From: a virus
Taxonomy: Duplodnaviria > Heunggongvirae > Uroviricota > Caudoviricetes
IMG/VR virus record: IMGVR_UViG_2693429748_000014
Strand: one strand, 5' to 3'
Length of the DNA: 12,787 nt
How positions within the stretch are numbered: the first letter of the stretch is position 1; every line of letters begins with the position of its first letter. The notes under the pieces are model-generated. The model saw only the letters and a program-made list of their open reading frames with translations. It had not been told where the DNA came from and did not search any database. The position numbers and the translations under genes were made by a program. Shown here piece by piece: positions 1 to 12,787 of this stretch.

Positions 1-72
1 TAAGTGATACTGGTTGTCTGGAGATTCAGGGGGCCAGTCTACCACCCCTGATGTCAGGTAGGAAAACACCAT
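1..72 (-). CDS. 5'-partial ORF of unknown function downstream of D; begins MVFSYLTSGVVDWPPESPDNQYHL and runs off the window start
   Basis: ATG at 72-70 on the minus strand, preceded by an AAGGA-containing stretch; open to the window edge. No recognisable similarity to Ogr, which would follow D in P2. Confidence 0.2.
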   Translation of the reverse strand, partial: MVFSYLTSGVVDWPPESPDNQYHL

Positions 73-190
73 ATGTTTCTGCTCTGTTTTTCCTTAGAAA
101 TAGGCATCCTTGCTGGAACAAAGCGAGCAGCTATATTGACTCTATGTTGTGAGTGTGTTGATCCGTTCTGAGTTAATACATTTAAGTTGC

Positions 191-1300
191 TCACTCTGTT
201 TCTGCTATCCATTCCGGGATTTTTGCCTCAAGCTCAAGCTGCGTGGTAAAGCCGCTGTTATCAATGGTGTGCTCGGCTTTTGCAATAATCCAGTCCTGAT
301 TATCAATCTCGCTTTTAAATCCTGTTACCGTGCCATGCATTTCGGGGTAGAGTTCTGCACGTCCATGCGCCAGTGTGATGGAGAATGATGCGGCTCCGCG
401 TTGTAGCTGCTGCCACTTTGCCGCCGCTGCACGTCTTGCTGCCTGCTCGTTCTGATAAGTTTTGCGTAACACAAACACGTTGCCTTCCGCACCTTCCATA
501 TAGTCGCCTTCCCGGCTGCTGCTTTTCTCCTTTTTTGGTTTTGACGGTTTGCGGCGTTTCACGCTGACTTTTTTCTTTTTCCCGTAATTAAGATCAAGCC
601 AGTAAGCGCGTACCCCCGTATACGCTTCGCGGTCAGCAATGCGGAACTGATGGCGATCGCCGCTGCTGCGTGTGATGGCGAACGAGGGCAACGGCTGGCC
701 CTGTGCGTTCACGCCACCACCGGGCATGATGAATAACAGATTACCGCTTTTTACCGTGGTGATTGCGCCCAGCATTTCCGCCATGCGCGTAAGGAAGGAC
801 ATGTCGCTTTCTTCGGTCTGGTCGGCGTGGTCGATTTCGATATCCATCAGCATTTCGCTGATTTGCGGTTTCAGACCATACCGATGAGCGATGGCGGATA
901 CCACACGCTCAACGGTCACATCATGCCAGGACACCTCACGTTTAACGTTAAATTCAGCCCGAAAATCTGCGCTTCTGGCTGAAACAGTCAGCCTGTCCGG
1001 CGGTCCTTCGTGAGCGATTTCATCAACAATGTAAGTGCCTTTTTCTGTCAGCGGTTCTCCCTTCCAGCCAATGAGAACCGTCAGGCGCGCGCCCCGTGGC
1101 GGTAGCTGCAACTGACCATCCGCATCATCCAGCGTGATGGTGAGCTGGTCCGCCTCAAATCCCCGGTTGTCGGTCAGTGACAGGCTCATCAGGCGCTCTG
1201 CCACGCCTGACAGCGTTTTACCCTCCGCGAGAATATCAAAATCCGGCATTTTCACGGGGTCTGTGCCCTGACTGAGCAATTGCATGGTGGTGTCGGTCAT
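191..1300 (-). CDS. P2 gpD-like tail protein (late control gene D family)
   Basis: Translation recalls P2 gpD motifs (LSLTDNRGFEADQL, SARSADFR, SWHD, FLTR, GDRHQF, REGDYMEG, NSGFTT, lysine-rich KKKKVSVKRRKPSKPKKEK linker). Start placed at the internal ATG at 1300 (MTDTTMQLL) because of the GGGAGGGAG Shine-Dalgarno just upstream; the ORF-track start at 1432 is probably too long. Confidence 0.85.
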   Translation of the reverse strand: MTDTTMQLLSQGTDPVKMPDFDILAEGKTLSGVAERLMSLSLTDNRGFEADQLTITLDDADGQLQLPPRGARLTVLIGWKGEPLTEKGTYIVDEIAHEGPPDRLTVSARSADFRAEFNVKREVSWHDVTVERVVSAIAHRYGLKPQISEMLMDIEIDHADQTEESDMSFLTRMAEMLGAITTVKSGNLLFIMPGGGVNAQGQPLPSFAITRSSGDRHQFRIADREAYTGVRAYWLDLNYGKKKKVSVKRRKPSKPKKEKSSSREGDYMEGAEGNVFVLRKTYQNEQAARRAAAAKWQQLQRGAASFSITLAHGRAELYPEMHGTVTGFKSEIDNQDWIIAKAEHTIDNSGFTTQLELEAKIPEWIAETE

Positions 1301-1457
1301 CTGCTCCCTCCCTGTGTGGCATGGTCGCATGTGCGTGCGGAGGGGGTTACTGCTTTTTGTTGTCGCCGTGGCGGGAGAATGGCGCAGGGGTGAGATTACG
1401 CGCGTGGTGGGTGATGATTGTTGCCGAATCATTTAACGGATACAAGGGGTTGAAGCT

Positions 1458-2642
1458 ATGAGTGAAACTCGTTTTCATGGTGCCCGTGTTACGGAAAATA
1501 CCGACCTGGTAACAGCGATTAACGATGTTGATTCCAGCGTTATCGGTATCGTGGCAACGGCGGATGATGCGGACGCGGAGCTGTTCCCGCTGAACAAGCC
1601 CACACTGCTGCCCCGCGTCAATGACGTGCTGGGAAAATGCGGAACAACGGGGACGCTTTATCGTGCGCTTAAGGCCATCGCAGACCAGGTGAGCACAAAG
1701 GTGATCGTCGTTCGCGTGGCTGAACACAAAGAAGAAGACGGAAAAACGCAGGATCAACTGGTTATCGGTGGTTCTGAATCTGACGGCAGCTATACGGGGA
1801 TGTATGCGCTGCTTGTTGCAGAGCAGGATGAAAGCATCGGATACCGTCCGCGTATTCTGGCCGCGCCGGAGCTGGACACGGAGGCGGTGACAAAATCCCT
1901 GTGCGTGATTGCGGGTAAACTGCGCGCGTTTGTGTATGCCTCATGTCATGACTGTAACACGATGGCTGAGGCAATTACCTACCGCCAGAAATTCAACGAA
2001 CGTGAGGTGATGCTCTTATGGCCGGACTTCATCGCCTACAACCCGAAAAGTGGCAAAAACGAAACGTTCCCCGCGCCTGCCTATGCGTGCGGCCTTCGTG
2101 CGTACATTGACCATGAGCAGGGCTGGCACAAATCGCTGTCCAACGTTCCGGTTAAAAATGTGCTGGGGATGTCCAGGCATGTGTTCTGGTCGTTGCAGGC
2201 CGAAGACAGTGATGCCAACAGCCTCAACAACAAAGAAATCACGACCATTATTCGTCGCAACGGGTTCCGCTTCTGGGGCAACCGCACACCGGAAACGAAC
2301 GCCTACATCTTTGAGGTGTATACCCGAACCGCACAGGTGCTGGCTGATTCAATTGCGGAAGCGCAGTTTGAAACCATCGACAGTCCACTGACGCCTGCGA
2401 ACGTGAAGGATGTTATCGGTGCCATCAGGGCAAAACTGGATTCACTGGTTACTGCCGGGAAACTGATTGGGGCGTCGTGCTGGTATGACGTGGTGGATAA
2501 CGGCACCACGAATTTACGTCAGGGGCGCGTGCGTATTCGCTACAAATATACGCCTGTTCCCCCGCTGGAAGACATGGAGCTTTACCAGTCGTTTACTGAT
2601 GAATTCTTTGGTCCCGCATTTGCGGTGCTGGGAGGTGCCTGA
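1458..2642 (+). CDS. contractile tail sheath protein (P2 gpFI family)
   Basis: 394 aa; motifs LRAFVYAS, WPDF, DHEQGWHKSLSNV, RRNGFRFWGNRT, YTRTAQV and YKYTPVPPLE match tail sheath proteins as I recall them; AAGGGG RBS; stop overlaps next start (ATGA). Confidence 0.9.
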   Translation: MSETRFHGARVTENTDLVTAINDVDSSVIGIVATADDADAELFPLNKPTLLPRVNDVLGKCGTTGTLYRALKAIADQVSTKVIVVRVAEHKEEDGKTQDQLVIGGSESDGSYTGMYALLVAEQDESIGYRPRILAAPELDTEAVTKSLCVIAGKLRAFVYASCHDCNTMAEAITYRQKFNEREVMLLWPDFIAYNPKSGKNETFPAPAYACGLRAYIDHEQGWHKSLSNVPVKNVLGMSRHVFWSLQAEDSDANSLNNKEITTIIRRNGFRFWGNRTPETNAYIFEVYTRTAQVLADSIAEAQFETIDSPLTPANVKDVIGAIRAKLDSLVTAGKLIGASCWYDVVDNGTTNLRQGRVRIRYKYTPVPPLEDMELYQSFTDEFFGPAFAVLGGA

Positions 2643-3154
2643 TGGCTGTACCAAAACATCTTCGCTTTTTTACGCTGTTTGTGGATGGTGAAAACGAAGT
2701 GGGTAAGGTGACGTCCGTCACTCTGCCTAAGCTGACGCGCAAAACCGACAGCTACCGGGGTGGTGGCATGATGGGAGCGGTAAGTATTGATCTCGGCCTG
2801 GATGACTCCGCGCTTGATGCGAGCTTTGTCATGGGGGGCGCAGTTCGTGAGCTGTTCCTTAAGTATGGCGGCACGATTGACGGTACGCTGCTGCGTTTTG
2901 CGGGTGAATACTACACCGACGCTGAAAGCGACCTGTATGAAGTCGAAATGCGCGGACGTGTGACGGAAATTGATATGGGGGAAGCCAAACAGGGCGAAGC
3001 CACATCACACACTTACGCCATTAAAAACACCTACTACAAGCTGAGTGTTAACGATCGCCCGTTGTGGGAGATTGACCTGCTGAACTTCATTTACCGGAAG
3101 GACGGCAGGGACATTGTGCCCGATCGCATCCGTTCCGCGCTCGGGCTTGGCTGA
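2642..3154 (+). CDS. tail tube protein (P2 gpFII family)
   Basis: 170 aa immediately after the sheath gene; translationally coupled (ATGA overlap) with GGGAGG RBS; size and position typical of the FI-FII pair. Confidence 0.85.
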   Translation: MAVPKHLRFFTLFVDGENEVGKVTSVTLPKLTRKTDSYRGGGMMGAVSIDLGLDDSALDASFVMGGAVRELFLKYGGTIDGTLLRFAGEYYTDAESDLYEVEMRGRVTEIDMGEAKQGEATSHTYAIKNTYYKLSVNDRPLWEIDLLNFIYRKDGRDIVPDRIRSALGLG

Positions 3155-3208
3155 TAAGTAATATGCAGGCGGCGCAGTGCGTCGCCTCTGACTGAAAGGA
3201 GTTTCCTG

Positions 3209-3574
3209 ATGAAAGAGACGAAAAACATCGATACCGAAAACACGGTCGTTGCTGACACTGTGAAAGAAACCAGTGAGCGTGGCGTAAAACTTACCCAACC
3301 AATTGAGCGAGGCGGCGAAAAAATCACGTATGTGGAGATCACCGGGGCTATTGAGCAGGCTGGATCTCTGCGAGATTTGTCGCTGTCTGATGTGCTGAAT
3401 TTGAAAGCGGAATCCATGTTTACGCTGCTGTCACGCGTGACATCACCGCGACTGGATGAAGTGACGATCAAAAAAATGGCATCCCGTGACTTTATTCAGT
3501 TATGTGTGGTTGCCGTAAATTTTTTGAGCGGTGCGGACTCTGGCGAGAAGAACGAACAGGCGACGGAAGCCTGA
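3209..3574 (+). CDS. tail assembly chaperone (P2 gpE-like), zero-frame product
   Basis: 121-aa ORF between tube and tape measure genes; AGGAG RBS 8 nt upstream; contains the TTTTTTG slippery heptamer at 3520-3526. Confidence 0.75.
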   Translation: MKETKNIDTENTVVADTVKETSERGVKLTQPIERGGEKITYVEITGAIEQAGSLRDLSLSDVLNLKAESMFTLLSRVTSPRLDEVTIKKMASRDFIQLCVVAVNFLSGADSGEKNEQATEA

Positions 3575-3738
3575 TCACGGTTGTGTGCTTTGAGCACATA
3601 GAAGACTTTGTGGCGGATATTGCCGCCATTTTTAACTGGTCGCCCGCCGAAATCTTCATGATGACGCCCGGCGAAGTGGTTAGCTGGCGTGAGCGGGCGG
3701 CACTTCGCAGCGGGAATGCAGACAATGAAGACTCTTGA
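3209..3738 (+). CDS. gpE+E'-like frameshift fusion product (-1 slip at T TTT TTG, 3520-3526)
   Basis: Slippery heptamer lies in-frame as N-F-L. The -1 frame is open from there to the TGA at 3736-3738 (ORF-track protein 3502..3738) and overlaps the tape measure start, as in the P2 E/E' and lambda G/GT arrangement. Confidence 0.6.
3520..3526 (+). promoter_or_regulatory. programmed -1 ribosomal frameshift slippery site TTTTTTG
   Basis: Heptamer seen directly in the sequence with the correct zero-frame phasing (aaT TTT TTG); same heptamer is used in P2 E/E' by recollection. Confidence 0.6.
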
Positions 3739-6532
3739 TATCCGGGTCGCTTTCAGCGCCGTTGACAGGCTGACCCGGCCTGCCGAAAACGCCCGCCGCC
3801 TGATGGGGCAGTTTGGTGACTCCATCCAGCGAACGCAGGGGGCGATCAAAAATCTCGAGCGTCAGGCGCGTTCATTTGAGCGCGCCCGTGACGCTGTCAG
3901 TAAAGCGGATGCGGGCATCGTGAAAGCACGACGCCAGCTTAACGCCCTTAATCAGTTACAACGCACGGGTACAGTGCTCAGCGAAAAACAACAAAAGCTG
4001 ATGCAGCAGTTAAGCACCCGGCTTGAACGCCTGAATGAATCGCGCACACGGGAAATTCAGAAAATGCGGGAACTTGGCGGAGAGCTGAAACGCCACGGCA
4101 TTTCCCTGACAGGCAGCGATAACACCATCCAGCAGGCCATCAGACGCACCGGACAATACAACAACCAGCTTGAACGCGAACGGCGGGCGCTTGCGCGTGT
4201 AACGCAGGCGCGTGAGCGGTATTCACGCGCGCAGGAAACAGCGGGAAAACTGAAAACAGGTGGTGCGCTGGCAACAGGTGCGGCGGCAGCGGGCGGCTAT
4301 GCTGCCGGGCGTTTTTTGCAGCCCGCTATCGGGTTCGGGAAAGAGATGTCCCGTGTTCAGGCACTGACGCGAATCGATAAAAACAGCCCGCAGTTTAAGG
4401 CGCTGCGTGAGCAGGCGTTAAAACTTGGCTCTGAAACGCAGTTCACCGCAGGCGATGCCGCCAGTGGACAGGCATTTCTTGCAATGGCTGGTTTCACACC
4501 GCAGGCCATTCAGGCTGCGCTTCCCGGCGTGCTGAGCATGGCAACGGCTGGCGGTATGGACCTCGGCGAGACGGCGGATATTGGTTCCAATATCCTGACG
4601 CAGTTCGGCCTCTCTGCTGACCAGATGGACCGGGTCGGTGACACACTTACCGCAGCGTTTACCCGTACCAACACTGACCTTCGCGCACTGGGCGAAACCA
4701 TGAAATATGCAGGTCCGGTGGCGGGTAAGCTGGGAATATCGCTGGAGCAGGCCGCAGCGATGGCGGGCGTGCTGGCGAAGATGGGTATCAGGGGGAGTGA
4801 TGCAGGTACAGCGTTGCGTAAAAGCCTGGCCAATCTGTCATCACCGCCAAAGGCAGCGGCAGAAGCACTGAAAGAGCTGGGGGTGTCAGTTGCTGACGCC
4901 AAAGGCAAAATGCGCCCGATGGAGAATGTGCTGGCCGATCTCTATAAAGCCACCCGCAAATACGGGGAGGTTGACCGGGTATCGTTCTTTAAGGACATTG
5001 CCGGAGAAGAGGCTTTCACATCATTTATGGGCCTCGTTGATGCGGCAGGTGACGGCTTCTTAGCCAAACTGAGAAAAGAACTTGAAGGCGCGCGCGGTGA
5101 GGCAGAACGCACGGCAAAGGTTATGGCCAATAACCTTGATGGCAACCTGAAATCACTCGGCAGTGCATGGGAAGGTCTGCGTATTCGCATCAGTGATCTG
5201 GTTGACGGTCCGCTGCGTTCTGTCACGCAGTGGCTCACGCGGGTTGTCTCAAAGGTGACGGCGCTGGCGCAGGCCCACCCGGCACTGACGCGCCAGTTAC
5301 TGATAGCGGGAGGCGCACTGCTGGCGACAACAGCAACGGTTGGTTCGTTGTCTCTGGTTATTGGGGTGCTTCACGGGAAGCTGGCTACGTTGCGTCTCGG
5401 TTTTTCTCTCCTGACCGAATCAATGAATGTTGTCAGGGTTCTGCCTGCATTATGGGGAATGGTGACGGGTTCCGTTTCTTTACTTGGTGGCGCTATCGGG
5501 GCGCTGTTCAGTCCGGTTAGTCTTATCGTGGCTGCGCTTGCCGGAGCTGCCGTTCTTATCTGGAAATACTGGGATCCCATCAGGGCATTTTTTGCCGGGG
5601 TGTTCAGCGGGATTATGGAAAGGCTGACCCCGTTGCGCGAAACCTTTGAACGGTTTGGCCCTGTTTTTGATGTCGTGCGCGATGGGATTATTCAGGTCTT
5701 TAACTGGTTTAAATCGCTGCTGTCACCGATGGAGTCCAGCAAGGAAACGCTGGATAAATGTGCCAGTGCTGGCGAGATATTCGGTAACGTTCTTGGCGGT
5801 GCGTTACAACTTGTTCTGACACCTGCAAAAATGCTACTGGATACGCTGGCGTGGATACTTGAAAAACTTGGCGTCCTTCCGGATGAAGCGGAAAGGGCGC
5901 GCAAGAAAATCGAAGACGCACAGCGTGCGGCCATTCTTCAGGACAAGGTTGCCTTGCTTCAGGGGGACCTGGCGAAAATCAATCCGCCGAAGCCTGTGGA
6001 AAATGGCAATGGCACCGGAGGTGATAAACCCAAAGACAACAAACCGCTCACAGACAGCAATACCGGGACGCTACGCAGACTCAGCAAAATTGCTGATAAC
6101 ACAGGTAAGCTGGTTGATGAGACGAAAAAACGCATTGGCCCCGGCGATATTGTCTTTAAGAACCTGCCCCGCGCACTTGCTGTTCGTGGGGAGTGGCAGG
6201 AGCGGAAGATTGCGCAGGTCAGTAAGCCTGCCCCCGCAATTAATATCACACCCGTGGTCCCGGCTCCGCTGCCTCCGGCGCTGGTCCCTGTTGTTGCGGC
6301 CAGCTCCCGCCCGGTGGCGGAGGCCATACGCTCTCCAGTGGCATCAGTTCCTGTAACTTCCCGTAACCGGGAGCCTGTTGCCTCCGGATTTGGTGGTGAA
6401 ATTCATGTTCATCTGCATAACGTTGTTACGCAGAATCCCCGCGAACTGGCGAAACTGGTCGGTGAAATGGTCAGGGCAGAAATGGAACGGCGCGCCCGTG
6501 CCGGGCGTGGCAGTTTTTACGATAAAGATTGA
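3725..6532 (+). CDS. tail tape measure protein (P2 gpT-like)
   Basis: Very long ORF (GTG 3689 to TGA 6532) after the chaperone pair; coiled-coil-like N-terminal region, central hydrophobic Gly/Ala/Leu-rich block, Pro/Ala-rich C-terminus. Start uncertain: ATG 3725 (GGGA about 9 nt upstream) preferred, with ATG 3716 and GTG 3689 as alternatives. Confidence 0.8.
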   Translation: MKTLDIRVAFSAVDRLTRPAENARRLMGQFGDSIQRTQGAIKNLERQARSFERARDAVSKADAGIVKARRQLNALNQLQRTGTVLSEKQQKLMQQLSTRLERLNESRTREIQKMRELGGELKRHGISLTGSDNTIQQAIRRTGQYNNQLERERRALARVTQARERYSRAQETAGKLKTGGALATGAAAAGGYAAGRFLQPAIGFGKEMSRVQALTRIDKNSPQFKALREQALKLGSETQFTAGDAASGQAFLAMAGFTPQAIQAALPGVLSMATAGGMDLGETADIGSNILTQFGLSADQMDRVGDTLTAAFTRTNTDLRALGETMKYAGPVAGKLGISLEQAAAMAGVLAKMGIRGSDAGTALRKSLANLSSPPKAAAEALKELGVSVADAKGKMRPMENVLADLYKATRKYGEVDRVSFFKDIAGEEAFTSFMGLVDAAGDGFLAKLRKELEGARGEAERTAKVMANNLDGNLKSLGSAWEGLRIRISDLVDGPLRSVTQWLTRVVSKVTALAQAHPALTRQLLIAGGALLATTATVGSLSLVIGVLHGKLATLRLGFSLLTESMNVVRVLPALWGMVTGSVSLLGGAIGALFSPVSLIVAALAGAAVLIWKYWDPIRAFFAGVFSGIMERLTPLRETFERFGPVFDVVRDGIIQVFNWFKSLLSPMESSKETLDKCASAGEIFGNVLGGALQLVLTPAKMLLDTLAWILEKLGVLPDEAERARKKIEDAQRAAILQDKVALLQGDLAKINPPKPVENGNGTGGDKPKDNKPLTDSNTGTLRRLSKIADNTGKLVDETKKRIGPGDIVFKNLPRALAVRGEWQERKIAQVSKPAPAINITPVVPAPLPPALVPVVAASSRPVAEAIRSPVASVPVTSRNREPVASGFGGEIHVHLHNVVTQNPRELAKLVGEMVRAEMERRARAGRGSFYDKD

Positions 6533-6538
6533 GGAGTC

Positions 6539-7033
6539 ATGGCCATGATGATGATCTACGGCATGTTTGTTTTTGAGCTGCGTACATTGCCGCATCAGCA
6601 GTTACAGCAAAACAAAAGCTGGCGGCATGTGAAAAATGAACGCGTTAACCGTTCGGCAAGCTGGCAGTATATCGGTGCAGGTGATGAGCGCATCGTTCTT
6701 TCTGGTGTGCTTTATCCTGAAATTACAGGTGGCGAAGTGTCGCTGTCGCTGCTGACCACGCAGGCGTATACAGGACGACCCTGGCCTCTGATTGATGGCG
6801 TCGGGCAGATTTACGGCATGTATGTCCTGACCGAAACGAATACGACCCGCTCCGAGTTTGATCGCTACGGTAAGGCGAAAAAGATAGAATTTTCACTGAC
6901 TCTTGAACGCTGTGATGAGGATTTGCGGGAGCGCCTGCAATCCTCATCGTTCAGCGATATGCTGTCCGGCTTCAAAGATAAGGTAACATCATCCCTTAAC
7001 AGCGCGGCCAGTTCAGTTAAAGGGTTGTTCTGA
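6539..7033 (+). CDS. tail protein gpU-like (tail sheath-terminating / tail completion protein)
   Basis: 164-aa ORF directly after the tape measure gene with GGAG RBS; size and position match P2 gpU. Confidence 0.8.
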   Translation: MAMMMIYGMFVFELRTLPHQQLQQNKSWRHVKNERVNRSASWQYIGAGDERIVLSGVLYPEITGGEVSLSLLTTQAYTGRPWPLIDGVGQIYGMYVLTETNTTRSEFDRYGKAKKIEFSLTLERCDEDLRERLQSSSFSDMLSGFKDKVTSSLNSAASSVKGLF

Positions 7034-7044
7034 TTTAACACAAA

Positions 7045-7079
7045 AACCGCTAATGGTCAGATTAGCGGTTATTTTGTTT
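7045..7079. terminator. bidirectional intrinsic terminator between convergent U and invertase genes
   Basis: Perfect 10-bp inverted repeat AACCGCTAAT / ATTAGCGGTT with 6-nt loop, A-run upstream and ATTTTGTTT downstream. Confidence 0.6.
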
Positions 7080-7656
7080 CCTGACTCTTCTCTATTGTTC
7101 CGATTGATTCTCCTGCGGGGTGGTAACGATAAATCGTCGATATACCAATGCCGTAAATTATTGCCAGTTGTTTTCTGTCGTGCCCGTTTTTGATCAGCCT
7201 TGCTATTTGCTCATGCTGTTCTTTTGTCAGCTTCGGTCGACGTCCGCCTGTGCGCCCCCGTGCGCGTGCTGCCGCCAGTCCGGCCAGTGTACGTTCAACA
7301 ATTAATTCACGTTCCATTTCAGCCAGGGCACCCATCACGTGGAAGAAAAAACGCCCCATTGGAGAAGATGTATCTATGCTGTCGGTCAGACTGCGAAAAT
7401 TAATTCCTCGCTCCCGTAGTTCCCCGACGAGAGAAATCAGATGTTTCATGCTTCGCCCGAGGCGATCCAGTTTCCAGACAACCAGCGTGTCACCTTTTTG
7501 AAGGCGCTTTAAAGCGCGTTTTAATCCCGGTCGGTCTGTCTTTGTCCCGCTTAATTTATCTTCAAATATTTGTTCACATCCTGCACAAACAAGAGCGTTT
7601 CGTTGCAGGTCTGTATTCTGGTCATTTGTTGATACCCTTACATAGCCAATCAGCAC
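7069..7656 (-). CDS. serine site-specific DNA invertase (Gin/Pin/Cin/Hin family)
   Basis: N-terminus VLIGYVRVSTNDQNTDLQRNAL with catalytic-serine motif, WKLDRLGRS, GRFFFHVMGALAEMERELIVERT and a C-terminal helix-turn-helix, all hallmark invertase sequences. Start set at GTG 7656 (GGGAGA RBS) rather than the TTG at 7674 used by the ORF track. Confidence 0.9.
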   Translation of the reverse strand: MLIGYVRVSTNDQNTDLQRNALVCAGCEQIFEDKLSGTKTDRPGLKRALKRLQKGDTLVVWKLDRLGRSMKHLISLVGELRERGINFRSLTDSIDTSSPMGRFFFHVMGALAEMERELIVERTLAGLAAARARGRTGGRRPKLTKEQHEQIARLIKNGHDRKQLAIIYGIGISTIYRYHPAGESIGTIEKSQETK

Positions 7657-7710
7657 GCTGAATCTCCCGTCCAAAAGCGCAAATCATGCCATGCAGGCCG
7701 GAAACGGCCA

Positions 7711-7736
7711 TTATCTAAAACCTCGGTTTACAGGAA
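7711..7736. promoter_or_regulatory. 26-bp invertase crossover site (gix/cix/hix-like): TTATCTAAAACCTCGGTTTACAGGAA
   Basis: Imperfect palindrome with AAACC-N2-GGTTT core; matches the Mu gix sequence as I recall it at 25 of 26 positions. Lies between the invertase start and the fibre cassette. Confidence 0.7.
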
Positions 7737-7760
7737 ACGGTAAACAAGGCTGGTAACGCC

Positions 7761-8747
7761 GTGCAAAAAAATGGCGATACGTTGTCCGGTGGACTTACTT
7801 TTGAAAACGACTCAATCCTTGCCTGGATTCGAAATACTGACTGGGCAAAGATTGGGTTTAAAAATAATTCGGATGCAGACACCGATTCCTACATGTGGTT
7901 TGAAACAGGCAACAACGGCAATGAATATTTCAAATGGAGACACCGCATCATTGGCACCCGGCCTAAAGACCTGATGAATCTTAAATGGAATGCTTTGTCT
8001 GTTCTTGTTGAAGCCCTTTTCAGCAGTGAAGTGAAAATATCGACAGTCAATGCACTGAGGATATTTAATTCATCTTTTGGTGCCATTTTTCGTCGTTCTG
8101 AAGAATGCCTGCATATCATCCCTACACGAGAGAATGAAGGGGAAAATGGTAATATAGGGCCACTACGCCCCTTTACGCTTAATCTCAGAACTGGCCGGAT
8201 AAGCATGGGGCATGGTCTTGATGTTACAGGGGATATATTTGCAAACCGTTTTGCAATTAACAGTAGTACCGGCATGTGGATTCATATGCGTGACCAGAAT
8301 GTTATTTTGGGACGTAATGCGGTATCCACTGATGGTGCTCAGGCTTTGCTCCGTCAGGACCATGCCGACCGCAAATTTATGATTGGCGGTCTGGGAAATA
8401 AGCAATTTGGCATCTACATGATTAATAACTCAAGGACAGCCAATGGCACCGATGGTCAGGCGTACATGGATAATAACGGGAACTGGCTTTGCGGCTCGCA
8501 AGTTATTCCCGGCAACTATGGCAATTTTGATTCCAGATATGTGAAAGATGTTCGACTTGGTTCACAGCAATATTATGGAGTGAACAACTGGCAAACATGG
8601 AATTTTCAGTGCCCGTCAGGCTATGTACTGACGGGGATTAACGTACAGGATACCGGAAAAAACTCTGCCGATAATATTGCAGGCGTTCATTACAGGCCAG
8701 TGCAAAAGTATATAAATGGCACTTGGTATAATGTGGCGAGTATTTAA
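7761..8747 (+). CDS. tail fibre C-terminal variable cassette (Sv-like); reading frame is actually open from 7719
   Basis: Contains the [10 protein letters not shown] fibre motif and ends [11 protein letters not shown]. The GTG start at 7761 is probably not a real initiation site: the frame is open back into the right half of the crossover site, as expected for a cassette fused to a constant N-terminal part by inversion. Confidence 0.75.
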
Positions 8748-8748
8748 T

Positions 8749-9276
8749 ATGATGCACTTAAAGAACATAAAAGCAGGTAATGCTAAAACAGTGGAGCAGT
8801 ATGAGTTAACAAAGAAGCACGGAGTCATCTGGCTTTACTCTGAGGACGGAAAAAACTGGTATGAGGAAGTGAAGAACTTTCAGCCAGACACAATAAAGAT
8901 TGTTTACGATGCAAATAATATTATTGTCGCCATCACCAAAGATGCCTCCACGCTTAACCCTGAAGGTTATAGCGTCGTTGAGGTTCCTGATATTACAGCT
9001 AATCGTCGTGCTGATGATTCCGGTAAGTGGATGTTTAAGGACGGAGCTGTGGTTAAACGGATTTATACGGCTGACGAACAGCAACAACAGGCCGAATCAC
9101 AAAAGGCCGCATTGCTTTCCGAAGCTGAATCAGTCATCCAGCCGCTGGAACGCGCTGTCAGGCTGAATATGGCGACGGACGAGGAACGCACACGACTGGA
9201 AGCATGGGAACGCTACAGTGTTCTGGTCAGCCGTGTGGATACGGCAAAGCCAGAATGGCCACAAAAGCCTGAGTAA
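8749..9276 (+). CDS. tail fibre assembly chaperone (Tfa / Mu U / P2 G family)
   Basis: Starts [10 protein letters not shown] one nucleotide after the cassette stop; paralogous to the convergent ORF 9305..9838; conserved [19 protein letters not shown] and KWMFKDG motifs. The longer ORF-track start at 8716 overlaps the fibre gene and is less likely. Confidence 0.8.
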
Positions 9277-9281
9277 AAATT

Positions 9282-9301
9282 AAGGCCCGATATCGGGCCT
9301 T
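9282..9301. terminator. palindromic hairpin / bidirectional terminator between convergent tfa genes
   Basis: AAGGCCCGATATCGGGCCTT is a perfect 20-bp palindrome with A/T-rich flanks on both sides. Confidence 0.5.
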
Positions 9302-9304
9302 GTT

Positions 9305-9838
9305 TCATTCTGGTTGTTCGGGAAACGTTACTGGCAGGCTGGAGGTGTCTGTGGATTCGACCTTCTGCGCATAGAGCATCCACTCGGTTAATTTTTGTTT
9401 ATTCTCGTCGGAAATAATGCCCAGCCGTAGCTGTGAGTCCCATAGCTGGGTTTTATCCCTGACGAGCTGTAGCAGGCTTTGCTTTTCATTTTCCGCTTGT
9501 TGCCTCTGCTCTTCCCCGGTATAAGTTCGCTTTATCACTACGCCATCTTTGAACATCCATTTACCTGAAATATCAGCCCGGCGATTTGCTGTAATATCAG
9601 GAACCTCAACGACGCTTGCGCCTTCCGGATTAATTGCTGAAACATCCTTTTCAATACAAATAATAACGCCGTTGTGGTCATAGACCATTTTCAACGTATC
9701 AGGCTGAAAGTTCTTTTGTTCCTCATACCAGTTTTTCCCATCCTCTGTATAAAGCCATTTGATGTTAAATTGTTTCGTTAGCTGGTATTGCTCTTTTGTT
9801 TCAGGATTACCAGCAGAAATGTTTTTTAAGTGCATCAT
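9305..9838 (-). CDS. tail fibre assembly chaperone, second paralogue (Tfa')
   Basis: Starts MMHLKNISAG; N-terminal two-thirds closely similar to the plus-strand chaperone while the C-terminus diverges, as expected for cognate chaperones of alternative fibres. Confidence 0.8.
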   Translation of the reverse strand: MMHLKNISAGNPETKEQYQLTKQFNIKWLYTEDGKNWYEEQKNFQPDTLKMVYDHNGVIICIEKDVSAINPEGASVVEVPDITANRRADISGKWMFKDGVVIKRTYTGEEQRQQAENEKQSLLQLVRDKTQLWDSQLRLGIISDENKQKLTEWMLYAQKVESTDTSSLPVTFPEQPE

Positions 9839-9840
9839 CG

Positions 9841-10197
9841 TTAAATACTCCCCGCGTTATACCACGTCCCATTAATGCAATACTGAATTGGCCTTGCCTG
9901 AGTTGTATCAATTAGTTCATCTCTGTTTGAGTTAACGGAACCGGTAACAACATAACCTGACCTGTCAGACCATCCGGGACCATTCCATGTCTGAACAGAT
10001 AACAGACCACCAAGGCGAATACCTGTAATAAACCTTGAGTTACATTCTGCCTGCGTATATGCACCAACATCTCCCGCAGAGGGTTTGCGGGTTGTGGTGT
10101 AAAACTCTGAGGTGTACTGGCAATAGCGGACACTACCATTTGTTCTTTTTTTAAGCAGCCATCTGATGATATTTTTCCCTGAAGGCTGAAGGCTATT
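9841..10197 (-). pseudogene. truncated alternative tail-fibre C-terminal cassette (Sv' remnant), about 118 codons with no start codon
   Basis: Hand translation of the minus strand gives ...RLGGLLSVQTWNGPGWSDRSGYVVTGSVNSNRDELIDTTQARPIQYCINGTWYNAGSI*, homologous to the C-terminus of the plus cassette (SGYVLTG ... [11 protein letters not shown]). Stop TAA at 9843-9841, 2 nt before the Tfa' start. Frame closed upstream by TGA at 10200-10198, where GC content drops. Confidence 0.55.
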
Positions 10198-10250
10198 TCA
10201 ATATCGCTATGCTGCGGCAGCATTTAACCCCTTGTAATTCATCGCCATAA

Positions 10251-10279
10251 TTGATTTAATTCACAAATAAAACTATAAT
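10251..10279 (+). promoter_or_regulatory. predicted sigma70 promoter TTGATT-N17-TATAAT for the methyltransferase gene
   Basis: Hexamers at 10251-10256 and 10274-10279 with 17-bp spacer in an AT-rich region just upstream of the ORF. The predicted transcription start would leave a very short leader. Confidence 0.35.
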
Positions 10280-10291
10280 ATGGTGAAATTA

Positions 10292-10948
10292 ATGAAAAAA
10301 AACACAGATGATGGGGCTAAAATTTACACACCACTTACCCTAAAGCTTTATGACTGGTGGGTTTTGGGAGTATCAAATCGGCTTGCATGGGGATGTCCTA
10401 CAAAGGAACACCTTCTTCCACACTTTCTGGAACATTTAGGTAACAACCATCTGGATATTGGTGTTGGAACTGGGTTTTACCTTACTCACGTACCTGAGAG
10501 TAGTCTGATATCTTTAATGGATTTGAACGAAGCTAGCCTGAACGCGGCATCTACAAGGGCTGGGGAATCAAAAATTAAACATAAAATTAGCCATGATGTT
10601 TTTGAACCTTATCCCGCGGCGTTACATGGTCAATTTGATTCCATTTCCATGTTTTACCTTCTTCACTGCCTGCCTGGAAATATATCTACAAAAAGCTGTG
10701 TAATACGCAATGCGGCGCAGGCCTTAACTGATGATGGAACTCTATACGGAGCCACAATTCTTGGCGATGGAGTTGTGCACAATAGCTTCGGTCAAAAACT
10801 GATGCGCATTTACAATCAGAAAGGCATCTTTTCAAACACAAAAGATTCCGAAGAAGGCTTAACACATATACTCTCAGAGCATTTCGAGAATGTTAAAACC
10901 AGGGTTCAAGGTACTGTAGTAATGTTTTCCGCTTCAGGGAAAAAATAG
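10292..10948 (+). CDS. class I SAM-dependent methyltransferase (cargo / moron gene)
   Basis: Motif I-like LDIGVGTGFY, acidic residue after the second strand (LMDLNEASL) and later FDSISMFYLLHCLPG / LTDDGTLYGATILGDG motifs, consistent with the Rossmann methyltransferase fold. Clearly lower GC than the flanks. Start at ATG 10292 (GGTGA RBS) preferred; ATG 10280 possible. Confidence 0.65.
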   Translation: MKKNTDDGAKIYTPLTLKLYDWWVLGVSNRLAWGCPTKEHLLPHFLEHLGNNHLDIGVGTGFYLTHVPESSLISLMDLNEASLNAASTRAGESKIKHKISHDVFEPYPAALHGQFDSISMFYLLHCLPGNISTKSCVIRNAAQALTDDGTLYGATILGDGVVHNSFGQKLMRIYNQKGIFSNTKDSEEGLTHILSEHFENVKTRVQGTVVMFSASGKK

Positions 10949-10955
10949 CATCCAA

Positions 10956-10988
10956 CCGCAGCACGTTCTTGCTTAAGACGTGCTGCGG
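10956..10988. other. stem-loop after the methyltransferase gene (CCGCAGCACGT ... ACGTGCTGCGG)
   Basis: 11-bp perfect inverted repeat 8 nt after the stop codon; no T-run follows on the plus strand, so terminator function is uncertain. Confidence 0.3.
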
Positions 10989-11146
10989 CATAATCCCAAT
11001 GATTACTCCCTGACAGGGTTCGTAGGCCACTCAATATCAGGTGCAGTTGATGTATCAACACGGTTCAGCAACACCCGATACTTTTTCTAGGCTTCCACCA
11101 CCAGCACGACAAGATGCCGCATACAGTGACCCAGTCAGTCCAGTTT

Positions 11147-11329
11147 TCAGACAACCAGTGCGTCACCTTTTTGAAGGCGCTTTAAAGCACGTTTTAATCC
11201 AGGTCGGCCTGTCCTTGTTCCGCTTAATTTATCTTCAAATATTTGTTCATATCCTGCACAAACAAGAGCGTTTCGTTGCAGGTCTGTATTCTGGTCATTT
11301 GTTGATACCCTTACATAGCCAATCAGCAC
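11147..11329 (-). pseudogene. 5' fragment of a second Gin/Pin-family invertase gene (about 60 N-terminal codons), truncated
   Basis: Encodes VLIGYVRVSTNDQNTDLQRNALVCAGYEQIFEDKLSGTRTGRPGLKRALKRLQKGDALVV then a stop; 4 amino-acid differences from the intact copy. Homology to the intact gene ends near 11139. Confidence 0.7.
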
Positions 11330-11383
11330 GCTGAATCTCCCGTCCAAAAGCGCAAATCATGCCATGCAGGCCGGAAACGGCCA

Positions 11384-11409
11384 TTATCTAAAACCTCGGT
11401 TTACAGGAA
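11384..11409. promoter_or_regulatory. second copy of the 26-bp gix-like crossover site, in direct orientation to the first
   Basis: Identical sequence TTATCTAAAACCTCGGTTTACAGGAA, 3673 bp downstream of the first copy. Confidence 0.65.
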
Positions 11410-11433
11410 ACGGTAAACAAGGCTGGTAACGCC

Positions 11434-12420
11434 GTGCAAAAAAATGGCGATACGTTGTCCGGTGGACTTACTTTTGAAAACGACTCAATCCTTGCCTGGA
11501 TTCGAAATACTGACTGGGCAAAGATTGGGTTTAAAAATAATTCGGATGCAGACACCGATTCCTACATGTGGTTTGAAACAGGCAACAACGGCAATGAATA
11601 TTTCAAATGGAGACACCGCATCATTGGCACCCGGCCTAAAGACCTGATGAATCTTAAATGGAATGCTTTGTCTGTTCTTGTTGAAGCCCTTTTCAGCAGT
11701 GAAGTGAAAATATCGACAGTCAATGCACTGAGGATATTTAATTCATCTTTTGGTGCCATTTTTCGTCGTTCTGAAGAATGCCTGCATATCATCCCTACAC
11801 GAGAGAATGAAGGGGAAAATGGTAATATAGGGCCACTACGCCCCTTTACGCTTAATCTCAGAACTGGCCGGATAAGCATGGGGCATGGTCTTGATGTTAC
11901 AGGGGATATATTTGCAAACCGTTTTGCAATTAACAGTAGTACCGGCATGTGGATTCATATGCGTGACCAGAATGTTATTTTGGGACGTAATGCGGTATCC
12001 ACTGATGGTGCTCAGGCTTTGCTCCGTCAGGACCATGCCGACCGCAAATTTATGATTGGCGGTCTGGGAAATAAGCAATTTGGCATCTACATGATTAATA
12101 ACTCAAGGACAGCCAATGGCACCGATGGTCAGGCGTACATGGATAATAACGGGAACTGGCTTTGCGGCTCGCAAGTTATTCCCGGCAACTATGGCAATTT
12201 TGATTCCAGATATGTGAAAGATGTTCGACTTGGTTCACAGCAATATTATGGAGTGAACAACTGGCAAACATGGAATTTTCAGTGCCCGTCAGGCTATGTA
12301 CTGACGGGGATTAACGTACAGGATACCGGAAAAAACTCTGCCGATAATATTGCAGGCGTTCATTACAGGCCAGTGCAAAAGTATATAAATGGCACTTGGT
12401 ATAATGTGGCGAGTATTTAA
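11434..12420 (+). CDS. tail fibre C-terminal variable cassette, second copy (identical to 7761..8747)
   Basis: ORF-track translation is identical to the first copy. Confidence 0.7.
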
Positions 12421-12421
12421 T

Positions 12422-12787
12422 ATGATGCACTTAAAGAACATAAAAGCAGGTAATGCTAAAACAGTGGAGCAGTATGAGTTAACAAAGAAGCACGGAGTCA
12501 TCTGGCTTTACTCTGAGGACGGAAAAAACTGGTATGAGGAAGTGAAGAACTTTCAGCCAGACACAATAAAGATTGTTTACGATGCAAATAATATTATTGT
12601 CGCCATCACCAAAGATGCCTCCACGCTTAACCCTGAAGGTTATAGCGTCGTTGAGGTTCCTGATATTACAGCTAATCGTCGTGCTGATGATTCCGGTAAG
12701 TGGATGTTTAAGGACGGAGCTGTGGTTAAACGGATTTATACGGCTGACGAACAGCAACAACAGGCCGAATCACAAAAGGCCGCATTG
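12422..12787 (+). CDS. tail fibre assembly chaperone, second copy, 3'-truncated by the window end
   Basis: Same [10 protein letters not shown] start and sequence as 8749..9276 at offset +3673; runs off the window. Confidence 0.7.

Follow-up and report, generated by a model that had tools for sequence, protein, structure and literature searches.

The segment at 10190-10988 of a 12,787-nucleotide stretch of viral DNA (the window) can be identified, by comparison with related genomes, as a ybcY-type methyltransferase cassette that is still intact; such cassettes are small cargo units found at the right ends of lambdoid prophages in E. coli and Shigella. The finding is an ordinary one; the gene is already known and is annotated in thousands of genomes, K-12 among them. 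The window around it reads as a composite of four pieces: P88-like prophage DNA (1-10110), the end of an IS600 (10108-10188), a lambdoid remnant that includes the cassette (10190-11351), and repeated P88-like DNA (11251-12787). The junction of IS600 with the cassette and the later return to P88-type sequence would most likely be joins introduced by assembly or scaffolding, and we put the probability that an assembly chimera, rather than a real IS600-associated rearrangement, caused the arrangement at about 0.7.

The cassette and its usual surroundings

The minimal cassette (10190-10988, + strand) consists of an upstream region, an ORF and a hairpin, and this unit is common to all of its contexts. 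The methyltransferase coding sequence lies at 10292-10948 (+, 218 aa), although annotators start it at ATG 10280 and so obtain 222 aa. A first-pass annotation, made from the sequence alone, had delimited the segment at 10198-11141; comparison places the left edge at 10190 and the right edge at 10988 or 11097, depending on the relative, and position 11139 is merely the start of an internal duplication. The hairpin at the 3′ edge (10956-10988) is as strong as was first supposed (-23.9 kcal/mol, z = -5.35), with none of 200 shuffles equally stable; its end is a right boundary common to different contexts of the cassette and the point at which ipaH-linked copies diverge. No T-run accompanies the hairpin on either strand, and a terminator scan found no terminator there.

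Upstream of the ORF is a sigma-70-type promoter-like site, TTGATT-17-TATAAT (10251-10279, +), which agrees with the consensus at 10 of 12 positions. The earlier reading of a near-consensus promoter is borne out by this match but not by numbers, as two such sites were seen in the AT-rich stretch against 3.2 ± 1.6 expected, which is not above chance; the site is supported instead by its conservation across copies and by a K-12 holoenzyme binding site. The orthologous K-12 spacer (TTGATT-17-TATAAC) is an RpoD-holoenzyme SELEX site flagged for H-NS (PMC3946193). The -35 is kept in the Enterobacter chromosomal homolog of the methyltransferase gene, and the ribosome-binding region upstream is likewise common to both. 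Because the -10 abuts ATG 10280, a transcript from it would begin ~5 nt before ATG 10292, without a ribosome-binding sequence. In a lysogen the gene would be transcribed alone, from a sigma-70 promoter probably repressed by H-NS.

The segment had also been described as a self-contained, moron-like insertion of much lower GC. A moron, as defined after the HK97/HK022 comparisons, is cargo of a temperate phage that forms a transcription unit of its own, and the cassette does behave as such a unit in its sharp edges and in its absence from all P88-like relatives. Its composition does not set it apart from neighboring phage genes: the segment has 42.3% GC, clearly below the tail structural genes (54.2%) but close to the equal-length flanks (44.0 and 44.3%). 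Windowed comparison with the flanks, which the first-pass annotation had proposed, gave the same picture, with 21% of 944-bp windows in the fiber region (7700 to the end) having GC as low as the segment or lower.

Of 5,426 complete E. coli genomes, 3,796 (~70%) carry at least 80% of the cassette, and in 409 complete E. coli genomes it forms one unbroken block with its right-hand neighbors (tfa fragment, truncated pin, crossover site). Its position in a host-range module, initially thought unusual, is not so, because most E. coli genomes carry the cassette in the same kind of neighborhood; by these comparisons the normal context of the cassette is among tail-fiber-assembly remnants at the fiber end of lambdoid prophages. 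In the K-12 prophage DLP12, for instance, a frameshifted methyltransferase gene adjoining appY-ompT lies between tfa fragments; this copy is ybcY, and the flanking fragments are the tfaX and tfaD remnants. These gene names are in use for K-12 DLP12 (PMC3946193). The K-12 copy has 98.7% nucleotide identity to the window across the whole 908-bp cassette, with the same order (tfa fragment, methyltransferase, tfa fragment), the same -35 and the same 17-bp spacing. It differs in being a frameshifted pseudogene where the window copy is intact, and in having TATAAC rather than TATAAT as its -10; in addition, the window has an IS600 stub in place of the left tfa fragment and a truncated pin gene, instead of terminase remnants, on the right.

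Lambdoid phages provide further parallels. Phage 2G7b (YP_009909997.1; 99.3% identical over 10190-11097), phages ev243 and PhiR26_1, and the potB-adjacent prophage of ETEC H10407 match the window at 99.2-99.5% over 10190-11097, and in the H10407 prophage the collinearity extends past the truncated recombinase and the crossover site and reaches into an inverted fiber cassette. These are lambda-like siphovirus genomes (J, lom, stf), whereas the left neighbor of the cassette in the window is a P2-type myovirus tail module. In S. sonnei, ipaH-linked copies (complete genomes CP061367.1 and CP041511.1, and the 4.96-Mb contig VFAD01000001.1) encode an identical protein, have 99.75-99.9% identity over 10190-10988 and have a tfa fragment on the left, but their homology stops at the hairpin, and a gene for an LRR+NEL (IpaH-type) effector takes the place of truncated pin. 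Relative to the usual context of YbcY (PHROG 2132) genes, the window thus has the expected tfa fragment and truncated pin on the right and an atypical left flank, the IS600 stub.

A P88-like fiber switch, an IS600 end and a lambdoid remnant

Positions 1-10110 are assigned, on identity, to a P88-like prophage (P2-type, Xuanwuvirus), of which they cover the part that begins at gpD, includes the invertase and ends within the invertible fiber segment. They are 100.000% identical to three related loci (L025, L026, and L020) in which the fiber gene (656 aa in L025) continues. The window starts inside the terminal ~39 bp of an IS2-type element (1-39), and L025 and L026 have an identical IS end ahead of gpD; L020, which does not have this IS, diverges before position 40. 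We presume the element to be IS2 from its terminal repeat and from the pair of 121-aa and 301-aa transposases in L025. An intact Pin/Gin-type serine DNA invertase (7069-7674, -; Pfam Resolvase 1.5e-50, HTH_7 1.8e-13), 100% identical to that of intact relatives, adjoins the fiber segment and is followed by crossover site 1 (TTATCTAAAACCTCGGTTTACAGGAA; 7711-7736, +), an exact 26-mer with 0 expected by chance. Beyond it lie the alternative fiber C-terminal segment Sv′ copy 1 (7761-8747, +, 328 aa; the gene called in relatives carries Gp34_trimer), the tail fiber assembly gene tfa′ copy 1 (8749-9276, +, 175 aa, with coordinates taken from L025; Pfam Caudo_TAP 3e-37) and, on the opposite strand, the tail fiber assembly gene tfa (9305-9838, -, 177 aa; Caudo_TAP 7.1e-37). 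In relatives with a flipped switch Sv′ is joined to the constant part as a 678-aa fiber, and both orientations occur. The tail fiber gene H is represented by a 3′ remnant of its last ~88 codons (9841-10110, -), whose translation (...SEFYTTTRKPSAGDV...INGTWYNAGSI*) is the C-terminus of the 701-aa fiber of L004 and is 100% identical to L025.

Like P88/Xuanwuvirus, the Gin/G segment of Mu, the Cin/C segment of P1/P7 and the Pin system of e14, the window combines a serine invertase with a crossover site of 26 bp and with Sv/tfa cassettes in opposed orientation, and P7, D108, and SfMu match 9800-10110 at 94-97%. The window differs from these switches in having no inverted partner site and no constant fiber N-terminal part reading into the alternative C-terminal cassettes, only the last ~88 codons being left; its two crossover sites, both on the + strand, are direct repeats, and a partner could lie beyond 12787. 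Intact relatives have what the first reading had expected at this point, as the rest of their fiber gene is followed by the inverted crossover site (window-equivalent 10786-10811) and baseplate genes; in L025 that partner has 2 mismatches to site 1.

The cassette had been suspected of destroying the switch. Alignment, however, indicates that the fiber gene is broken 88 codons before its stop by the IS600 end and not by the cassette. This terminal stub of IS600 (IS3 family; 10108-10188, -) has 81 bp of one end only, with neither the other end nor a transposase; it is identical at 81 of 81 positions to the end of a full IS600 in L021 and also matches annotated IS600 ends in E. coli genomes. Between the stub and the cassette is an orphan base, an A at 10189, that fits neither IS600 (next base C) nor the flanks of ybcY in S. 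sonnei (C or T). From 10190 on, the two ybcY copies of S. sonnei agree throughout, and the preceding base is C in one and T in the other. Exactly at the position of the orphan base, scaffold L015 of S. sonnei reads N. These observations place the IS600-to-cassette join right on an assembly repeat boundary and make an artefact its probable cause. Microhomology-mediated joining was considered for this join and set aside: the heptamer GAAGGCT is duplicated there and not shared once, which does not fit a simple event. The 10190 junction was also rejected as an invertase crossover site; the window has such sites at 7711 and 11384 and nowhere else.

Sequence on both sides of the join has a perfect counterpart in the S. 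sonnei locus L014, with 100% identity over 9305-10188 and again, in its lambdoid remnant, over 10190-11351. The latter stretch continues past the hairpin into a tail fiber assembly gene 3′ fragment, a tfaD-type remnant (11003-11107, -), at the collinear position of which an incomplete tfa is annotated in H10407 and K-12; in relatives, 76 bp of the left-hand tfa fragment are found repeated. Next is a truncated pin gene of 66 initial codons (11147-11347, -; Pfam Resolvase 4.1e-15, profile positions 2-69 of 145), in which all 9 differences from copy 1 are S. sonnei lambdoid-remnant alleles, all of them present in L014. Crossover site 2 (11384-11409, +) follows in direct orientation to site 1. It is part of an exact second copy of 7578-9114 (11251-12787, +), comprising the crossover site, Sv′ and the start of tfa′, with 0 mismatches over 1,537 bp up to the window end. 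The three differences that come next after 11351 (11352, 11373, and 11379) are P88-type alleles, and because L014 alleles run to 11351 and P88-type alleles follow, we place the change from lambdoid to P88 alleles within the 101-bp identical stretch 11251-11351. As this falls left of the crossover core, the return to P88-type sequence was not Pin-mediated.

Origin of the arrangement

Every join in the window is at an exact-repeat boundary. Searches of complete E. coli genomes, GTDB representatives (two scans), IMG/VR and JGI metagenomes gave no copy of the IS600-cassette junction, and an exact look-up among 153 billion gene positions had no record of the junction-spanning ORF. The junction's absence elsewhere is weak evidence, because the collections searched at the DNA level left out S. 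sonnei genomes. Draft scaffolds are also the source of the comparison loci L014-L018.

A real rearrangement, which we consider the less likely course, would have begun with IS600 in the P88-like fiber gene. Illegitimate deletion or recombination from inside the IS, plus homologous recombination in the 101-bp stretch, would later have fused the prophage to a lambdoid ybcY/truncated-pin remnant; the invertase would have stayed intact, with two crossover sites as direct repeats separated by 3.67 kb. Such a history is plausible because IS elements heavily rearrange Shigella chromosomes, and IS600 is evidently active in this prophage, being inserted at other positions in it in S. sonnei genomes (L021-L023 and L030). 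S. sonnei moreover has multiple near-identical fiber-switch modules, RecA would have ample homology to act on in the perfect matches of 101 bp and 806 bp, the window has no N and its joins read cleanly, and a pure de Bruijn contig cannot hold a junction that is missing from the reads. Against this, neither transposition nor IS-mediated adjacent deletion yields an 81-bp stub of one end that meets non-IS DNA through an orphan base, as the IS stays whole in each; the breakpoint is, to the base, the start of the exact repeat in the two S. sonnei ybcY copies and coincides with the N of an independent scaffold; and neither the junction nor its spanning ORF turned up in any collection searched. For these reasons an assembly chimera is our preferred reading.

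We think it improbable that the composite is real in the fuller sense, namely an IS600-broken P88-like switch fused to a lambdoid ybcY/truncated-pin remnant, in which one intact invertase faces two direct sites bracketing the methyltransferase and identical fiber cassettes stand in two prophage contexts. If the composite were real, it would be evidence that host-range modules still pass between unrelated prophages at orphan crossover sites whose adjoining pin genes are dead. On this reading YbcY, which is conserved and always adjoins host-range genes, could also serve in lysogenic conversion by methylating a small molecule or a lipid of the envelope.

The first-pass annotation had instead seen an AT-rich moron inserted into the invertible fiber switch, where it replaced the partner crossover site and the N-terminal part of the fiber gene and may have destroyed the switch. 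P88-like relatives do lack a methyltransferase gene at the matching position, the unit does have a promoter-like site of its own and a hairpin, and the window does lack an inverted partner site, although a partner for crossover site 2 could lie past its end. The cassette was nonetheless not inserted in a P88-like switch, because P88-like sequence is not resumed on its far side and it runs collinearly into its own lambdoid neighborhood of tfa fragment, truncated pin and crossover site. With an IS600 stub as its left edge, GC like that of its flanks, and the same cassette and neighborhood in most E. coli genomes, insertion is very improbable. The alignment to prophages without the cassette that had been suggested as a check finds the fiber gene continuing in the relatives and the window to be a composite and not an insertion; what remains of the moron-like description is the cargo unit itself.

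The apparent island within the switch dissolves once relatives are compared and has little discovery value, but it is a cautionary case. Exact repeats of tfa genes, pin remnants and ends of IS elements make up the prophage fiber-switch regions of Shigella and E. coli; a draft contig from such a region can be chimeric, and odd gene placement there calls for read-level support.

The methyltransferase

The ORF at 10280-10948 is intact and, in agreement with the first reading, its product is predicted to be a class I SAM-dependent methyltransferase, with matches to Pfam Methyltransf_12, Methyltransf_23, Methyltransf_25, and Methyltransf_11. The exact protein is an S. sonnei protein found on 301 contigs. 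It matches PHROG 2132 with E = 1.9e-156 (518.9 bits; residues 5-222 against profile positions 1-218 of 218). The SAM-binding motif I is present as LDIGVGTG, with D55, G57, G59, and G61 invariant among 47 homologs, and the acidic residue ending strand 2 is D77 (LMDLN), which is also invariant and ends strand E72-77 of the AlphaFold model (pLDDT 91). The predicted fold is the seven-stranded alpha/beta Rossmann-like fold of class I methyltransferases.

In this model the fold resembles small-molecule and lipid methyltransferases, not DNA methyltransferases, as the nearest structures are PmtA (8ys9), JHAMT (7ec0), MM_2633 (3dtn), BelI, DhpI, and Coq5. These are only 12-21% identical to the YbcY-type protein and have no family-level sequence match with it, and therefore neither subfamily nor substrate can be transferred from them; PmtA 8ys9, for example, is alike in general fold only. 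The NCBIfam profile of the bacterial phospholipid N-methyltransferase PmtA scored 15.5 bits (cutoff 390) and that of RquA 16.8 bits (cutoff 175), both below family level. The profile and structure searches proposed earlier for a subfamily assignment hence delivered the fold and PHROG 2132 but no NCBIfam family, and the earlier view that the substrate is not predictable was upheld. The product would be a soluble 218-aa class I SAM-dependent methyltransferase acting on a small molecule or lipid head-group rather than DNA.

Orphan methyltransferases are common on phages, and the only result from PADLOC was a weak match to mad2 (E = 0.0026, 14.6 bits), which we did not accept as membership in a defense system. 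That the enzyme methylates DNA to guard phage or host from restriction, or is part of a defense system, is the least credible of the readings considered, given that the Pfam search matched no DNA-methylase family, the translation when read directly has no (D/N/S)PP(Y/F/W) or PC motif, a protein of 218 aa has no target-recognition domain at such a size, the best structural neighbors act on small molecules or lipids, and the homologs are single chromosomal genes without restriction or defense partners.

Homologs with 56-69% identity occur in Enterobacter and Erwinia as chromosomal, non-phage genes, and the cassette may have originated from such an Enterobacterales gene captured with its upstream region. 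Function could not be read from gene neighborhood, since the chromosomal homologs have unrelated neighbors: a liv-type ABC transporter, DUF4156 and a hydrolase in Enterobacter, and an esterase and DoxX in Erwinia. A literature search for ybcY function returned mentions only in lists or as a landmark near ompT, with no function described. YbcY-type methyltransferases are nevertheless intact, with a promoter-like site, in most E. coli and Shigella lineages, which makes their substrate an annotation gap.

The P88-like tail module and its fibre switch

ORF listing, Pfam searches and alignment to relatives identified in the window the tail module of a P2-type (P88-like, Xuanwuvirus) prophage. The module begins with gpD (191-1432, minus strand), which is followed on the plus strand by the sheath (1458-2642), tube (2642-3154), E/E' (between tube and tape measure), tape measure (3689-6532) and gpU (6539-7033). 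The fibre switch comprises an intact serine invertase, pin (7069-7674, minus), a 26-bp crossover site (7711-7736, plus), the alternative fibre C-terminal cassette Sv' (7761-8747, plus) with its assembly gene tfa' (8749-9276, plus), tfa (9305-9838, minus) and a remnant of fibre gene H (9841-10110, minus) that keeps its last ~88 codons. Positions 1-10110 align at 100.000% identity to three intact P88-like prophages (L025, L026 and L020), whose 656-aa fibre gene continues uninterrupted past the equivalent of 10110. The intact relatives also have an inverted partner crossover site (window-equivalent 10786-10811) and baseplate genes after the fibre gene. Otherwise near-identical P88-like prophages, related to window 7069-10110, occur with the invertible segment in both orientations (L029, L033 and L037 versus L030, L034, L035 and L038), having either a 656-aa fibre with a 328-aa cassette adjoining the invertase or a 678-aa fibre containing the Gp34_trimer cassette, and this phage family therefore has an active switch.

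In the window, P88-like homology of the fibre gene ends at 10110. The 81 bp at 10108-10188 match one IS600 terminus at 100% identity, base 10189 belongs to nothing, and the methyltransferase cassette starts at the next base. The first-pass annotation had placed this cassette as an insertion inside the switch, a reading that fails on comparison with the relatives because P88-like sequence is not resumed to the right of the cassette as an insertion requires. Whether the window is chimeric or a real rearrangement, it is IS600 that breaks the fibre gene, not the cassette. In other genomes the same prophage carries complete IS600-type copies (called as 385-aa fused transposases), at 8759-9915 and 11719-12875 of L021 and similarly in L022 and L030. 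Their sites in the invertible region differ among complete genomes, lying between the invertase and Sv' and within tfa, and IS600 is actively degrading the switch in this lineage.

Another IS element, presumably IS2-type, contributes ~39 bp of its terminal repeat at the window start (1-39); it lies upstream of gpD in L025 and L026 and is missing from L020. Just left of the window, the ogr-gpD slot of P88-like prophages carries cargo that differs by relative (L004 2436-5833; L020 703-2205): a His-Xaa-Ser (HxsDBCA) radical-SAM system in E. coli strain B2, a 500-aa PIN_4-domain protein in Shigella sonnei-type prophages and nothing comparable in P88 itself. This slot looks like a genuine cargo hotspot.

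The junction between IS600 and the cassette

The window holds either a real REARRANGEMENT or an assembly join, and we consider it probable (roughly 0.7) that the juxtaposition of IS600 and the cassette is a chimeric join made at IS/repeat boundaries. The two S. sonnei copies of the methyltransferase gene (L011 and L014) show no difference from 10190 on, and one has C and the other T at the base just before. At that same base, 10189, the window has an orphan A and L015, an independent S. sonnei scaffold, has an N; the breakpoint therefore falls, to the base, on the edge of a repeat node in the assembly graph. The 81-bp IS end fused to foreign DNA looks like a contig end; in both transposition and IS-mediated adjacent deletion the IS stays whole. 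Exact repeats common to the loci involved lie at 9305-10188 and 11251-11351, and the final 1.5 kb of the window duplicates DNA already present in it and runs to the window end. In this direct repeat, 7466-9114 recurs as 11139-12787 with nine mismatches, all within the N-terminal coding part of the invertase; the last 1,537 bp, starting at 11251, match exactly. The start of the window, 39 bp inside an IS end, also counts for an assembly join.

The junction was not found in complete E. coli genomes, GTDB representatives, IMG/VR or JGI metagenomes, in a DNA-level search that did not extend to S. sonnei genomes, and exact look-up found no record of the junction-spanning ORF. On the other side stand this limit of the search, the lack of any N in the window and the evident activity of IS600 in complete-genome copies of this prophage; we nevertheless regard a real IS600-associated rearrangement as unlikely. 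At the right edge, 10190-11351 matches L014, a lambdoid remnant of S. sonnei, at 100% identity, and shares with it each of the nine alleles by which truncated and intact pin differ; the next three differences (11352, 11373 and 11379) are P88-type. The change-over to P88-type sequence therefore falls within a 101-bp identical stretch left of the crossover core, a position that rules out Pin-mediated exchange.

The S. sonnei drafts L015-L018 have two or three copies of the same fibre and methyltransferase modules, placed in both orientations. Single-N joins occur in them at L015 9910, L016 4483 and 10656, L017 9864, and L018 1212, 4475, 6479 and 10354, several of them at single-base differences between repeat copies. 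Assemblies of these S. sonnei loci are unreliable.

The methyltransferase cassette and its usual neighbourhood

A self-contained methyltransferase cargo gene, as first annotated, is real. Its ORF (10280-10948, 222 aa) scores above threshold with four Pfam families of class I methyltransferases and matches PHROG 2132 ('unknown function'; 1.9e-156) over its full length, and the promoter-like site claimed for it was found at 10251-10279 (TTGATT-17-TATAAT). The hairpin at 10956-10988 is indeed strong (-23.9 kcal/mol, z = -5.35 versus shuffled sequence), but it lacks a T-run and a terminator scan there found none. The supposed much lower GC is not borne out locally: the segment has 42.3%, flanks of the same length have 44.0% and 44.3%, and one fifth of fibre-region windows of this size are as low. 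A clear contrast exists only with the tail structural genes (54%).

Nor is the placement unusual, as had been proposed: an already known and ubiquitous gene sits here among neighbours of its usual kind. The 908-bp cassette (10190-11097) is 99.2-99.5% identical to lambdoid phages including 2G7b, ev243 and PhiR26_1, and is present at >=80% coverage in 3,796 of 5,426 complete E. coli genomes. Its K-12 MG1655 counterpart is the frameshifted methyltransferase of prophage DLP12, known as ybcY, between tail-fibre-assembly fragments and adjoining appY-ompT. ETEC H10407 is one of several genomes in which the cassette occupies the very end of a lambdoid prophage, adjoining potB. The order after it is the same there as in the window: tfa fragment, truncated recombinase, crossover site, inverted fibre cassette. 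Because of this order and the contiguity of block 10190-11440 in 409 complete genomes, a position beside host-range genes and a dead invertase is the normal context. The exact window protein is an S. sonnei protein on 301 contigs. In S. sonnei complete genomes (L011-L013, 10985-12628), the identical cassette is followed directly by an LRR_TTSS plus NEL (IpaH-type) E3-ligase effector gene; homology to the window stops exactly at the hairpin 3' end (10988), which therefore marks a module boundary. Many database entries for homologues (P0001, P0003, P0005, P0008 and P0012) are C-terminally fused, internally duplicated or truncated, reflecting frequent cassette breakage by rearrangements or assembly problems.

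Protein fold, origin and expression

A confident AlphaFold model (pLDDT 91, pTM 0.87) predicts a class I methyltransferase fold, and motif I (LDIGVGTG) and the ribose-binding D77 are invariant in 47 homologues. The nearest solved structures (12-21% identity) are the small-molecule and lipid methyltransferases PmtA, JHAMT, MM_2633, BelI, DhpI and Coq5; profile comparison gave no match on which a family could be assigned. Nothing points to a DNA methyltransferase, there being no catalytic PP or PC motif, DNA-methylase Pfam match or target-recognition domain.

Homologues at 56-69% identity are single chromosomal genes with unrelated neighbours in Enterobacter, Citrobacter, Erwinia, Yersinia and others; the phage gene is probably a captured host gene. 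Upstream of the Enterobacter homologue (L006 5890-6012), TTGATTTAATTCAC and AAGGTGAAATTAATG are shared with the window, and capture would have included this upstream region. The -35 and the AAGGTGA ribosome-binding region are common to the window (10274-10294) and L006. With these shared sequences the start would be fixed at ATG 10292, making 10292-10948 (218 aa) more likely than a frame from ATG 10280. The -10 runs from TGTTAC (Enterobacter) through TATAAC (most E. coli) to TATAAT (window and S. sonnei), which we read as improving; the A-to-T change giving TATAAT also creates the spurious upstream ATG 10280 used by annotators. Transcription starting downstream of TATAAT would leave almost no leader. 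In K-12, genomic SELEX located a site for the RpoD holoenzyme, flagged for H-NS, in the spacer between ybcY and tfaX (PMC3946193). Most likely, the cassette would be expressed in the lysogen from its own putative promoter, damped by H-NS.

On the opposite strand, a 45-aa ORF (10893-11030, minus) runs across the 3' end of the methyltransferase gene and across the hairpin; its RefSeq annotation as 'hypothetical protein' or, in K-12, 'nucleocapsid protein' is most likely an artefact.
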